Shown one piece after another: positions 2,407 to 9,429 of a stretch of 13,516 bases of DNA. This DNA is from Deferribacterales bacterium. GTDB taxonomy: Bacteria; Chrysiogenota; Deferribacteres; Deferribacterales; Geovibrionaceae. Position numbers and translations under genes: made by a program. The first letter of the stretch is position 1; every line of letters begins with the position of its first letter. The notes beneath the pieces are model-generated. The model was given only the letters and a program-made list of their open reading frames with translations. It was not told the DNA's origin and did no database searches. The stretch spans positions 1 through 13,516 of the forward strand of contig JBFWJG010000055.1 in NCBI GenBank assembly GCA_050253335.1. Reading direction: 5' to 3'.

Positions 2407-2512
2407 TAAAAATACATGGCTGTATTTTCGCCGTGCGCAGCGAAGCCGTGTTTACCACGGCGCGAGCGTGTACAAAAATCCGACAGGACGTGCGGATTTT
2501 TGCGGCAAATCA
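2407..2512 (+). mobile_element. Structured ~106-bp insertion element, copy 2
   Basis: Hairpin AAAATACA-TGGC-TGTATTTT (2409-2428), CGCCGTGCG (2429-2437), AGCGAAG (2439-2445), hairpin CCGTG-TTTAC-CACGG, GAGCGTGT (2464-2471), stem CAAAAATCCG/CGGATTTTTG around ACAGGACGT (2483-2491). Flanked by a 45/46-bp direct repeat. Confidence 0.75.
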
Positions 2513-3681: not shown

Positions 3682-5592
3682 CTACATTCCTTTAACCACA
3701 GCGAAATAGCCGTTGTAGTTTATCACAGCCCAGACTGTGTTTGTTGCCGTGTCAACGCCCCAAGTGCCGAGCTTATCCCCTTCCTGCCAAGCGCGCTGAA
3801 CAAATGTATTGCCTCCGCCGAAATTCTGATCAACAGCATTTATCCATGTGCCGTCATCGTCATTTGTTGCGATGCCGAATTTGCCACCGGCAATCTCAGA
3901 GGAACTTACTTTTGATGAGTCATAGCTCATTGAGAGTGTAAATACATCAGTCTGTTCGCTCCCCATGGTATAAGTCATACCGTTCAGGAAGAAAATTTCA
4001 CTCAGTGAGTCCTGCGGAGTAAGCCAGCCGGTGTTTACATGAAGATTAAATCTGCGCCCGGAAGCTGTTTCCTGCTGGAGGTTGCCGTTTTTACCGTTGA
4101 TTATTTTTGCGTTGGTTCCGCCTGTGCTTGTGGAATCAACTACTGTGAGGCTGCCCCCCTGAGCGATGATATATTCTTCTCCGTTGAGGCTGTAGCCGAA
4201 GGTCTCTTTCTTGGTGAAGTTCATTGTGGGAGTGGTGGTGAAGCTGTCTTCCGTATATGCGGGTGATGAGTAGAAGTCCACGGTGACAACGGGCCCGTCA
4301 ACGGTGAAGATATAATAGCCTACGGAATAAAGCTCCTGAGCTACGTTCTTCTGCCGTATGCCTCCCCAGAGGAGTGCATCGTTTGATTTGTTGACAGGTG
4401 TAAGTCCGTATGCTGCTGCGGTGCTTTCAACATCGCTTCCCGGTGTATAGAATTTTGAGCTGTTGGAAACACAGACAAGCTGCTGAACCTTTGCAGTGGA
4501 ACCGTCTTTGGTGTAGACAAGGCTTCTGTCATGCATATGGTCGTGCCCGTTTATGTGGAAGCGCACTCCGTTTTGTTCAAGGCTGGTGATATAGTCGTCA
4601 AGGCCGGGTGAGTCAAAAGTTGTAAAATCAGGTGCGGTTACATCGTTCACAGTGTAACCGAACATATTGTCAATGTGATCCTGCGTTAGCAGTCCTTTGT
4701 GAGCAAAGCAGAATGCATGTGTGCCGGAGCTTCTGCCGGCAAGCTGTGCGTCTATCCAGCTCTGCTGAAATCTGATGGGATTTGAAGTGGTTTCAACTGC
4801 GTTTATCACGGGCGTTGTGTCGTGTGAAAGCCCGTCTTCGCCTTTGAAGTGATCAAGAAGGACAAAGCGGACATTTTCATAATCGAAAGAGTAGGAGAGT
4901 CCGGTCATGTCATCCGTTTCAGCAGCGGAAGGGCTTGAGAAGTTTCTGCCTAATGTGAATTCGTTGGTGTTTGTTCTGACAATTTCAGGCAGCCAGTTTA
5001 TGTCAGGGTTTACTGCTGAATAGGCATCAGACTGAACGGAGTAAACGTTGTGCACTCCGCCGATTGTCTGAGGAAAAAAGCTGCGGAACTGTGCAGCAGC
5101 CGCAGCAGAGTCATCATGATTTCCTCTCAGGGGGAAAAAGCCTATGCCTTCGTTATAAAGCCTCTGAGCATAACGCGCTCTTACTCCGAAACCGTCAAAC
5201 GGAGTGTAATTGACAGTTGTATCTGTTGGGACATGTTTTGCTGTGAAGTTTTGTTTGGCATCATCAGTGAGGTCGCCCACTGCCACAACAAGCTTGACTC
5301 CGTGCCTAACAAATTCGTCATTAAGGCTGTTGATTATGTCCACTGCTGTTGATGCGGGGTTTTTACCGTCATCATCTTTTGTCCACTGGGTATCGGAAAT
5401 GATGCCGAACTTCCATGCTCCGCTTGTGGGGAGTACTGCTCTGGGAGCAGCGGGTCTGTCCGGAGTATCAGAACCGGATGAACCGCCGCAGCCTACTGTC
5501 ATTCCCACAGCGGCGGCACTCATTGCCGTTGCTGAGAGTTTAAGGAACTGGCGTCTGCCCAGTCCGGTGTTCTTTTCATTTTTCTGTGACAT
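3682..5592 (-). CDS. Tat-exported (probable lipoprotein) calcineurin-like metallophosphoesterase, 636 aa
   Basis: ATG at 5592 with GGAGG 6 nt upstream. Signal GRRQFLK, hydrophobic stretch, TVGC lipobox, then a GGSSGS linker. Metallophosphoesterase motifs in canonical order: ISDTQ, VGDLTD, RGNHD, FAHK, NGHDH. Confidence 0.88.
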   Translation of the reverse strand: MSQKNEKNTGLGRRQFLKLSATAMSAAAVGMTVGCGGSSGSDTPDRPAAPRAVLPTSGAWKFGIISDTQWTKDDDGKNPASTAVDIINSLNDEFVRHGVKLVVAVGDLTDDAKQNFTAKHVPTDTTVNYTPFDGFGVRARYAQRLYNEGIGFFPLRGNHDDSAAAAAQFRSFFPQTIGGVHNVYSVQSDAYSAVNPDINWLPEIVRTNTNEFTLGRNFSSPSAAETDDMTGLSYSFDYENVRFVLLDHFKGEDGLSHDTTPVINAVETTSNPIRFQQSWIDAQLAGRSSGTHAFCFAHKGLLTQDHIDNMFGYTVNDVTAPDFTTFDSPGLDDYITSLEQNGVRFHINGHDHMHDRSLVYTKDGSTAKVQQLVCVSNSSKFYTPGSDVESTAAAYGLTPVNKSNDALLWGGIRQKNVAQELYSVGYYIFTVDGPVVTVDFYSSPAYTEDSFTTTPTMNFTKKETFGYSLNGEEYIIAQGGSLTVVDSTSTGGTNAKIINGKNGNLQQETASGRRFNLHVNTGWLTPQDSLSEIFFLNGMTYTMGSEQTDVFTLSMSYDSSKVSSSEIAGGKFGIATNDDDGTWINAVDQNFGGGNTFVQRAWQEGDKLGTWGVDTATNTVWAVINYNGYFAVVKGM

Positions 5593-5669
5593 ATATATCC
5601 TCCGCAAAATATTGCTAAGGTAATATGAAACCTCGGAATCAGAAAAATGTTGTGCATAATGATAATAAA

Positions 5670-5798: not shown

Positions 5799-6815
5799 AT
5801 GCAGCTCGACATAAGCGGACTCGACAGTTACAGGACGGAGATTGCTCAGGCAGCCTCTCTTGATGCCCTGTATCAGGTGAAAGTGAAATATCTCGGTAAA
5901 AACGGGCTAATAAGCAACCTTAACAGACAGCTCAAGGATATATCCTCCCATGAGGATAAAAAAGAGGCGGGAACGAAAATAGGCGCCCTCCGTGCGGATT
6001 TCGAAGCCCTGCACGATGCCAGAGAGCTTGAGCTTAAAAGCGCCGAGAAAAACGCCAGACTCACCGGTGAATCTCTGGACATAACACTCCCCGGCCTTCC
6101 TTTTACATCTGGAAGCATACATCCTGTCACCAGAGTTTTTGACGAGATAGTGGATATTTTCAGCGCCATGGGTTTCGAAGTGGCCATAGGGCCGGAGGTC
6201 GAGCATGACTTCTATAACTTCGAGGCGCTCAACATCCCCAAAGAGCACCCCGCAAGAGACATGCAGGACACGTTTTACATAACAGATGAAATACTTATGC
6301 GCACGCACACTTCCCCCGTGCAGGTGCGTACAATGCTGAAAAACAAGCCTCCTGTGAAGATAATCGCCCCCGGAAAGGTTTACCGCTGTGACAGCGACAT
6401 CACCCACACGCCCATGTTCCATCAGGTTGAGGGGCTCCTTGTGGATGAAAGAACCACCTTCGGCGATCTGAAAGGGATTCTCACCGTATTTATACAGAAG
6501 ATGTTCGGCGATAACGTGCCCGTGCGCTTCCGCCCCAGCTTCTTCCCCTTCACTGAGCCCAGCGCAGAGGTGGATATGGGATGCGTAATCTGCGGAAGCA
6601 AGGGATGCCGTGTGTGCAAACAGACCGGCTGGCTTGAAATCCTCGGCTGCGGAATGGTTGACCCTGCCGTGTTCAAGCATGTGGACTATGATTCGGAAAA
6701 ATACAGAGGCTTCGCCTTCGGTATGGGTATCGAGCGTATCGCCATGCTGAAATACGGCATAGACGATTTACGCCTCTTCTTTGAGAATCACCTTAAATTT
6801 TTGAGGCAGTTTTAG
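5799..6815 (+). CDS. pheS: Phenylalanyl-tRNA synthetase alpha subunit
   Basis: GSIHP, HPARDMQDTFY, RTHTSPVQ, PGKVYRCD, THTPMFHQVEG, FRPSFFPFTEPSAEVD, CxxC-xxx-CxxC, WLEILGCGMV, GFAFGMGIERIAML. Confidence 0.99.
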   Translation: MQLDISGLDSYRTEIAQAASLDALYQVKVKYLGKNGLISNLNRQLKDISSHEDKKEAGTKIGALRADFEALHDARELELKSAEKNARLTGESLDITLPGLPFTSGSIHPVTRVFDEIVDIFSAMGFEVAIGPEVEHDFYNFEALNIPKEHPARDMQDTFYITDEILMRTHTSPVQVRTMLKNKPPVKIIAPGKVYRCDSDITHTPMFHQVEGLLVDERTTFGDLKGILTVFIQKMFGDNVPVRFRPSFFPFTEPSAEVDMGCVICGSKGCRVCKQTGWLEILGCGMVDPAVFKHVDYDSEKYRGFAFGMGIERIAMLKYGIDDLRLFFENHLKFLRQF

Positions 6816-6958
6816 AATCCCACGGAAGGGATTCCGCCGTGCGGAGCGAAGACGCACTCTGTGCGGCGCGAGCGTGTGAGTAAAAAACACAGGATGTAGT
6901 TTTTTACGAACTATTGTAAAAATAAGAGAATCACCTTAAATTTTTGAGGCAGTTCTAG
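6783..6958 (+). repeat. 33-bp direct repeat of the pheS 3' end (6783-6815 and 6926-6958) flanking a 110-bp insert
   Basis: GAGAATCACCTTAAATTTTTGAGGCAGTT[T/C]TAG with one mismatch. It ends exactly at the pheS TAG; the second copy runs into the pheT SD (AGGAG). Confidence 0.97.
6816..6925 (+). mobile_element. Structured ~110-bp insertion element, copy 3
   Basis: Hairpin GAATCCC-ACGGAA-GGGATTC (6815-6834), CGCCGTGCG (6835-6843), AGCGAAG (6845-6851), hairpin CGCAC-TCT-GTGCG, GAGCGTGT (6870-6877), stem GTAAAAAAC/GTTTTTTAC around ACAGGATGT (6889-6897). Flanked by a 33-bp direct repeat. Confidence 0.75.
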
Positions 6959-9391: not shown

Positions 9392-9429
9392 TTTCAGGGG
9401 AACTTTTTAGGAACAAAGTTCCCCTGAAA
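9392..9429. repeat. 15-bp perfect inverted repeat downstream of pheT (hairpin or REP-like unit)
   Basis: TTTCAGGGGAACTTT-TTAGGAAC-AAAGTTCCCCTGAAA, followed by CCCCTCAAAAACT; no U-tract directly after the stem on +. Confidence 0.75.

Follow-up and report, generated by a model that had tools for sequence, protein, structure and literature searches.

A dispersed three-hairpin repeat with CsrA-type GGA loops and a selected fold in Deferribacterales

The genome of a Deferribacterales bacterium contains many copies of a repeat of about 105 bases that sits between genes, and three of these copies lie in the 13,516 nucleotide contig that was analysed here (the window). On balance, the sequence comparisons favour the reading that this is a dispersed, mobile repeat of three hairpins whose fold and A(N)GGAN loops are under selection, and which likely acts as an RNA that docks CsrA. 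The genome of the window (G000) was compared with three other genomes of the same genus (G027, G028 and G029). G029 is a single contig, and its locus counts cover 2.6 of 3.0 Mb, leaving out 2.4-2.8 Mb.

The window carries thrS-infC-rpmI-rplT, an enoyl-CoA hydratase gene, the gene for a long exported protein, pheS-pheT and further genes; thrS, infC, rpmI and pheT are what we take these genes to be from their sequence. The three copies are located at 2203-2310, 2407-2512 and 6816-6925, all on the plus strand. The copy at 2407-2512, which the initial annotation had flagged, scores 104 bits with the repeat model R1, which was built including this copy, and has folding z-scores of −2.6 as RNA and −5.0 as DNA. 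Its 5′ hairpin H1 (2409-2428) has the loop ATGGCT (2416-2421), in which GGA is changed to GGC; the orthologue in G028 retains the GGA loop. The 5′ half of the conserved core (2429-2445) forms a small CGC/GCG hairpin with one free base (2438) and includes the 5′ strand of a stem with predicted tandem G-A pairs. It is followed by the middle hairpin H2 (2445-2461), an exchangeable allele according to covariation and the comparison of orthologues, and by the 3′ half of the core (2462-2471), where 2466-2467 are paired with 2440-2441, a pairing for which other copies show compensatory changes. The 3′ hairpin H3 (2473-2502) has an AGGAC loop (2485-2489) and a single bulged base (2492), and a short A-rich tail (2503-2512) precedes the right-hand copy (2513-2558) of a flanking direct repeat of 45 bp. 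The left copy (2362-2406) is palindromic, contains runs of A and of T and resembles a terminator for rplT; this role is presumed, and the palindrome is absent from the list of our terminator scan.

The copy at 2203-2310 is degenerate and starts immediately 3′ of the rplT stop codon; the final 28 bp of rplT (2175-2202) are duplicated behind it at 2311-2338. It is nearly identical across the four species despite having no GGA loop. It also has a new 5′ hairpin and is possibly a domesticated 3′ UTR structure. The copy at 6816-6925, between pheS and pheT, is intact, and the final 33 bp of pheS (6783-6815) are duplicated at 6926-6958. This site is filled in G000 and G029, whereas G027 and G028 have one copy of the duplication and no element, that is, an empty site. 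The claim of two GGA loops per copy thus holds in the window for copy 6816 only, since the 5′ loop of the flagged copy reads GGC and copy 2203 lacks GGA loops altogether. No promoter-like site was found within 2100-2800 of the window. RNA-library contigs from two studies, which come without strand or ends, hold rplT and copy 2203 on one contig, and also other copies of the repeat.

Other features of the window were seen as well. A different palindromic repeat cluster with GTCATTCTGAG-type arms is located at 2567-2695; there are 84 such arms in this genome and 24 in the covered part of G029. At the same site G027 has one arm only, leaving about 100 bp extra in this genome. The cluster resembles Ssn-related motifs, yet it fails their published pattern. 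On the minus strand, a frame of 641 amino acids with a twin-arginine-like leader (3682-5607) has no NCBIfam family above cut-off and is presumably metallophosphoesterase-like, judging from its motifs. Two apparent tandem sigma-70-like promoters, as before rRNA operons, were recognised by eye at the contig end (13255-13450).

All stems and loops quoted in the initial annotation are present in the sequence, and its observation that the stems vary and still pair extends to the whole family. In an alignment of 148 of the 166 non-redundant copies, picked for having the 5′ hairpin, 24 of 25 named pairs show two-sided changes, which is far beyond chance as measured with a control that ignores kinship. 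Paired cells make up 91% in this alignment, compared with 60% in shuffles and 34-49% in slid registers, and the covariation score is 0.756, compared with 0.201 for shuffles and at most 0.168 for slid registers. RNAalifold recovers the same three stems unprompted. The fold consists of H1, a 7 bp stem with an A(N)GGAN loop, followed by the core with two short covarying helices, H2, and H3, an 11-12 bp stem that is capped by the second loop and has its bulge two pairs beneath it. Within the core, the CGC/GCG hairpin is accompanied by a 2 bp helix closing two G-A pairs that are predicted beneath H2. Across 554 copies, two-sided changes in these short helices were found from GC to AT in 8 copies, from CG to TA in 10 and from GC to AT in 3; one-sided changes are of the G-U type in 29 and of the A-C type in 6, counted as copies and not as events. 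The proposal that the element acts as a single strand is supported to the extent that its fold is under selection. A kink-turn was considered for the core and rejected, because the loop adjoining the G-A pairs is of the 1x2 type, where a kink-turn would have a 3-base bulge.

The interpretation of the stem changes as compensatory needs a correction. Covariation holds, but many of the changes are swaps among recurring stem alleles. The stems exist as dozens of alleles that are nearly unlinked: 74 copies contain 71 distinct combinations. G027, G028 and G029 share the H3 lineage at the flagged locus but carry other H1 and H2 stems, so that part of the apparent compensation is allele exchange. The single bulge in the 3′ stem is found in 111 of the 125 intact 3′ stems of G000; that it is always a purine does not hold, as this applies to just 83 of the 111. 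Both GGA loops are present in at least 279 of the 391 copies parsed across two genomes. The GGA loops are 5- and 6-base loops in which N is free, and strict CA(N)GGANG loops cap 97 of 112 and 99 of 125 intact outer stems in G000, and 153 of 197 and 191 of 244 in G029. The GGA loops are conserved copy by copy at orthologous loci, and also in diverged relatives with other stems or cores.

A profile search yielded 186 matches in the genome and none in its reversed sequence; 140 of the matches have the full core and occupy 91 loci. Across the genus, the four genomes have 116, 108, 73 and 247 exact cores; two sister-genus genomes have 4 and 3, and the remaining 62 of 68 genomes of the phylum have none. 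Covariance-model matches, with 57 candidates scored per genome, were obtained in 27 of the 68 phylum genomes, all within two families. Twenty stretches from five of the genomes with model matches are built alike but differ in their stems and cores, and the GGA loops are retained in most of them. Named records with the core of the repeat are Deferribacterales. Among metagenome stretches, 80 of 123 were scored, and the strong matches come from a single assembly. Viral contigs and plasmids gave no match, and phages gave one weak match of 45 bases; one candidate match lies in Mycolicibacter (L013). Two matches in Planctomycetota are chance-like, lie within coding DNA and were discarded. The initial annotation had linked the element to translation genes, but the family is not special to them.

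Related repeats were observed alongside. A second, longer family of about 145 bases has the same two GGA-loop end hairpins and a different middle; 7 of the 9 matches listed for G000 look real, and the family is located on contigs C8, C9, C21, C41 and C45. In another genome, G030, short and long repeat forms are found, often side by side in opposite orientation (L421, L423, L424, L426, L427, L438 and L439), and they adjoin a palindrome type that also occurs at 9392-9429 of the window. RtT repeats of E. coli are located between tRNA genes. Diverged copies of the present repeat lie between tRNA genes at one locus of G051 (L433), which has no match to the RtT model.

Several observations mark the repeat as mobile and tandem-amplifying, with long flanking duplications, an aspect that the initial annotation leaves out in its finding. 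Direct repeats abut both ends at 23 of 79 loci in G000 and 27 of 112 in G029, compared with 1 and 0 of 300 in the null sets. These duplications are 12-117 bp long, with medians of 39 (G000) and 45 bp (G029), and the two copies of a duplication change in concert between species, as is expected from repeated unequal recombination. Arrays are head-to-tail; mixed orientation was seen at none of 91 loci in G000 and 1 of 111 in G029. For loci with an identifiable orthologue, 46 of 58 in G000 are filled in G029 and 46 of 85 in G029 are filled in G000. Clean empty sites were rare in the automated comparison, and most of the "empty" orthologues hold remnants or other repeats. On contig C1 of G029, at about position 1,130,100, an insertion duplicated the ribosome-binding site and the first ~50 bases of the downstream gene, the mirror image of the usual duplication of a gene end.

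Junction logos revealed no sharp target motif, and the alignment of 148 copies showed no terminal inverted repeat. The Y1 (HUH) transposase (PF01797) is absent from all four genus genomes, as is each of PF01609 (DDE_Tnp_1), PF05598, PF14104 and PF01548 (IS4/IS5, IS1182, IS1634 and IS110 types), and a short GIY-YIG frame occurs in one of the four. Reverse transcriptase (PF00078) is absent from G000, G027 and G029 and present among these genomes in G028 only; a retroposon route was not borne out and may have used an enzyme that was lost or is very divergent. Over 16 genomes of the family, none of seven Pfam families tracks the high-copy genomes, and the 9 genes with copies on both sides are, by eye, ordinary cell genes. 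Since no helper enzyme was found among the seven families searched, the insertion step is reconstructed from its traces. A new copy would insert with a target duplication, so that the adjacent gene keeps its end; the duplications might then recombine unequally, which would generate arrays or remove the copy precisely, and gene conversion could exchange stems between copies.

Flanking duplications, empty sites, arrays and allele swapping are also what a selfish, MITE-like repeat without host function would show. In that case the pairing would be due to template switching, which is known to perfect inverted repeats (described in the cited part of PMC5941160), and the consensus to gene conversion. 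We regard this as very improbable, because single copies evolve under constraint. In the comparison of G000 with G029, 53 of 87 gene-pair contexts of G000 have an orthologous copy, where some contig-end contexts map onto one and the same G029 locus. Fourfold sites in the flanks differ at 5996 of 13628 positions (44%). The element was compared in pairs chosen among copies detectable in both genomes, a choice that lowers the measured divergence, and here 6 of 280 positions (2.1%) differ in the A-GGA of the loops, 47 of 1378 (3.4%) in the core and 156 of 1724 (9%) in the stems. Stem alleles restricted to a single locus differ at 25 of 304 positions (8%). Free bases of the loops differ at 45 of 110 (41%) and the free core base at 26 of 53, and the 37-49% divergence at free element positions puts the age of the loci level with that of their flanks. 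Among 96 changed pairs, 59 remain Watson-Crick, 12 became G-U and 25 are broken. Single-locus stem alleles and the loops within them diverge 5-20 times more slowly than neutral sites. Alleles confined to one locus would lack a donor for gene conversion, and template switching would not lower the substitution rate, from which we infer that selection acts on the individual copies. Core helices of just 2-3 bp covary as well, and the 53 contexts retained their copy at 44% silent divergence although recombination could remove it precisely. Although survivor bias makes the figures smaller, it probably does not account for them, given that most loci survive. The simplest reading is that each copy is under purifying selection.

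The copies are not oriented at random, as had been expected for an element read from mRNA. With gene calls from a simple in-house caller, the GGA strand between co-directional genes is the mRNA strand in 38 cases against 8 in G000 and in 53 against 17 in G029. Convergent gaps are over-represented (20 of 69 loci, compared with 88 of 721 gaps of at least 100 bp) and divergent gaps under-represented (3 of 69, compared with 200 of 721). Copies start at a sense stop codon at 22 of 91 loci in G000 and 31 of 111 in G029, and end at an antisense stop codon at 13 and 21 loci; in convergent gaps the two arrangements are about equally frequent (7 sense and 6 antisense in G000, 11 and 14 in G029). A further subset ends at a sense ribosome-binding site, 45-62 nt upstream of the start codon (16 of 91 and 22 of 111 loci), with 0 and 2 loci in the mirrored position.

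This placement at gene ends and ribosome-binding sites would also fit copies that serve their own mRNA locally in cis, whether CsrA takes part or not, and with no titration across the genome. Like YPAL, for which such roles have been proposed, they could affect the stability or processing of the transcript or regulate the ribosome-binding site that follows. Copy 2203, which lacks GGA yet is conserved in four species and shares one RNA-library contig with rplT in two studies, argues in the same direction. We nevertheless consider these roles, taken together, distinctly improbable as the full explanation. Antisense copies are as conserved between the species as the others (10 of 174 stem positions and 2 of 28 AGGA positions differ), sites are gained and lost, with the pheS site empty in two of four species, and a hairpin followed by a T run is commoner on the other strand (21-25% compared with 2-7%), which means that part of the bias in orientation may be due to polarity alone.

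The equal constraint on both orientations also bears on the nature of the folded molecule, since an RNA reading requires that antisense copies are transcribed from the other side. GGA retention is similar: 65 of 70 loops in copies antisense to both neighbours and 227 of 245 in sense copies. The fold might instead act as single-stranded DNA (or RNA) that is read by another protein, for example a mobilising enzyme or a replication or repair factor, and the likeness to CsrA sites would be convergent. The DNA fold of the flagged copy, with its z-score of −5.0, would agree with this, and G-U pairs are scarce in the variable stems (18 of 1244 and 43 of 1758 pairs, compared with 6-8% in tRNA stems). 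The core also holds GCGNAGC, a DNA mini-hairpin sequence known from PMC13037366 in the part cited here. The mini-hairpin reading of GCG-N-AGC was rejected, however, as it shows zero two-sided changes whereas the competing helices have them. Leading-strand copies occur at 72 of 111 and 54 of 79 loci, with replication strands taken from the cumulative skew of G029 and from synteny; an assignment by codon skew in the fragmented genome was discarded as unreliable, being consistent for only 34 of 53 contigs. In a logistic fit, gene direction predicts orientation (odds ratios 2.7 and 3.7, p 0.0004 and 0.0016), replication strand adds nothing significant (p 0.07 and 0.17), and the leading-strand excess loses significance when gene direction is part of the fit. 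None of the candidate proteins follows the distribution of the family, and the loop variants that are tolerated are those that CsrA tolerates. We therefore consider a DNA element read by another protein unlikely, though it is the alternative to which we give most weight.

For docking of CsrA to an RNA element, the reading that we prefer, the candidate ligand-binding protein is encoded. The genome has a single csrA gene directly after fliW, where FliW is the best family match but scores below its curated cut-off, and the csrA product keeps L4 and R44. In this respect the initial annotation, for which a lack of covariation, loss of the GGA, random orientation or a missing csrA would have spoken against its reading, stands: none of the four was observed. 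csrA was found in all 27 genomes with a match to the repeat model, but since it is present in 60 of 68 phylum genomes this co-occurrence does not discriminate. The 8 phylum genomes without csrA also lack the element, which is uninformative because their entire families lack it. On contig C1 of G029, at about 452,800, a copy abuts the csrA stop codon in antisense orientation to csrA; no full-core copy is listed at csrA in G000.

Known CsrA ligands include the CsrB repeat and the ANGGAN loop (PMC7652899, cited part). In each of the two flagellin leaders of this genome there are two CAAGGA(A/G)G sites, whose hexaloop sequence is that of the repeat and one of which lies over the ribosome-binding site; the B. 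subtilis hag leader has an arrangement of two CsrA sites with one over the ribosome-binding site (PMC7652899, same part). The flagellin genes themselves, on the minus strand of contig C10 (ends 8295 and 19667), have very long frames of 1090 and 1053 amino acids. Hairpin-embedded CsrA-type sites number 242 in the repeat family and 225 elsewhere in the genome, where control motifs number 132-178. The suggestion that the loops are placed for one CsrA dimer is supported in part: they are of the CsrA type, but they are 63-70 nt apart, at or just past the 10-63 nt over which E. coli CsrA is described to bridge sites (PMC7652899). In 17 of the 22 G029 loci where a copy ends at a ribosome-binding site, the H3 loop is 24-35 nt from a GGA there, a distance that falls within the bridging range of 10-63 nt. 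The scarce G-U pairs, the loop spacing, the loss of GGA in copy 2407 and the conserved GGA-less copy 2203 count against CsrA docking, as do the equal constraint on antisense copies and the near balance of the two stop-codon arrangements in convergent gaps.

If CsrA does dock, most copies would be transcribed on the GGA strand within mRNAs, and titration of CsrA by the repeat would be likely on top of docking. The hundreds of hairpin loops might jointly titrate a CsrA that is here of the FliW-paired, flagellin-controlling type, and CsrA could directly repress genes where the H3 loop sits near the GGA of a ribosome-binding site. We know of no Csr small RNA in FliW-type bacteria. Going further, the family might be a self-spreading, genome-wide CsrA sponge, in which two-site modules on mRNAs replace CsrB and free CsrA tracks total transcription; CsrA-clamped RNA would possibly be the insertion intermediate, with no resident transposase or reverse transcriptase. 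We regard this extension as speculative and quite unlikely. The cited part of PMC7652899 treats joint action of FliW and RNA antagonists on CsrA in any species as an open question, and PMC4333381 and a preprint (bioRxiv 10.64898/2026.09.22.753630), in the parts cited, do not settle how CsrA-type loops relate to the expansion of repeats. The family is a tractable case, as it offers natural loop mutants, filled and empty alleles, single-locus stem alleles and measurable selection per copy. Should CsrA indeed bind, this would be a case of a global regulator being rewired by a mobile repeat. The way in which copies insert, with duplications of 12-117 bp and no enzyme found among seven families, is a second reason for interest.

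A cmscan of the window and 30 loci identified no relevant Rfam family, and a literature search found no paper on this repeat. Among the known systems, CsrB/CsrC and RsmX/Y/Z have the same loop sequences, CAGGA(U/A/C)G and ANGGAN, as found here; in the cited part of PMC7652899 they are single genes with many sites from Gammaproteobacteria, whereas the present repeat has two sites per unit, at least 100 loci, mostly at mRNA ends, and a host with fliW. TD-2 (RF03162; PMC1950547) and RtT (RF00391) are described as multi-copy structured repeats with modular or covarying stems and are alike in this respect. The TD-2 model gave no match, with no control match either, and none in the window or the 30 loci; the RtT model matched none of five genomes, while the E. 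coli control matched. REP/RAYT and IS200/IS605 derivatives have a Y1 transposase and no target duplication, in contrast to the long duplications without PF01797 found here, and MITEs of the IS4/IS5, IS1182, IS1634 and IS110 types have terminal inverted repeats and a cognate transposase, neither of which was found. The pattern of the Ssn-related motifs, as given in the cited part of PMC11893778, is absent from the window, and their GIY-YIG partner would be represented by a short frame in only one of the four genus genomes.

Two systems are closer. TwoAYGGAY (RF01731), for whose loops a CsrA role has already been proposed (parts of PMC2864571, PMC4333381 and bioRxiv 10.64898/2026.09.22.753630), shares two GGA-type loops, tandem G-A pairs, a variable high copy number and a mobile-like expansion. 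According to these descriptions it consists of two hairpins on a common basal stem and occurs in divergent doublets, whereas here three hairpins stand in a row with the loops at both ends and no closing stem, and arrays are head-to-tail; the A(N)GGAN loops are also wider than AYGGAY. The RF01731 covariance model gave no match in G000, with the control genomes also silent, and none in the window or the 30 loci. Variants nearer to the family may be contained in the supplements of Weinberg 2010 and of the TwoAYGGAY preprint. YPAL/RU-2 of Yersinia, in the cited part of PMC2229807, is alike in having no terminal inverted repeats, variable target duplications, filled and empty sites, targets beside dyad symmetry and a proposed co-transcription. 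It is about 168 bp long with duplications of 3-26 bp, compared with about 105 bp and 12-117 bp (median 39-45) here; modular stems set the present repeat apart, a comparison made by description, in which that part of PMC2229807 does not mention GGA loops. By the features tested the repeat is a member of neither system, and it works like TwoAYGGAY in its loops and copy number and like YPAL in its duplications and sites.
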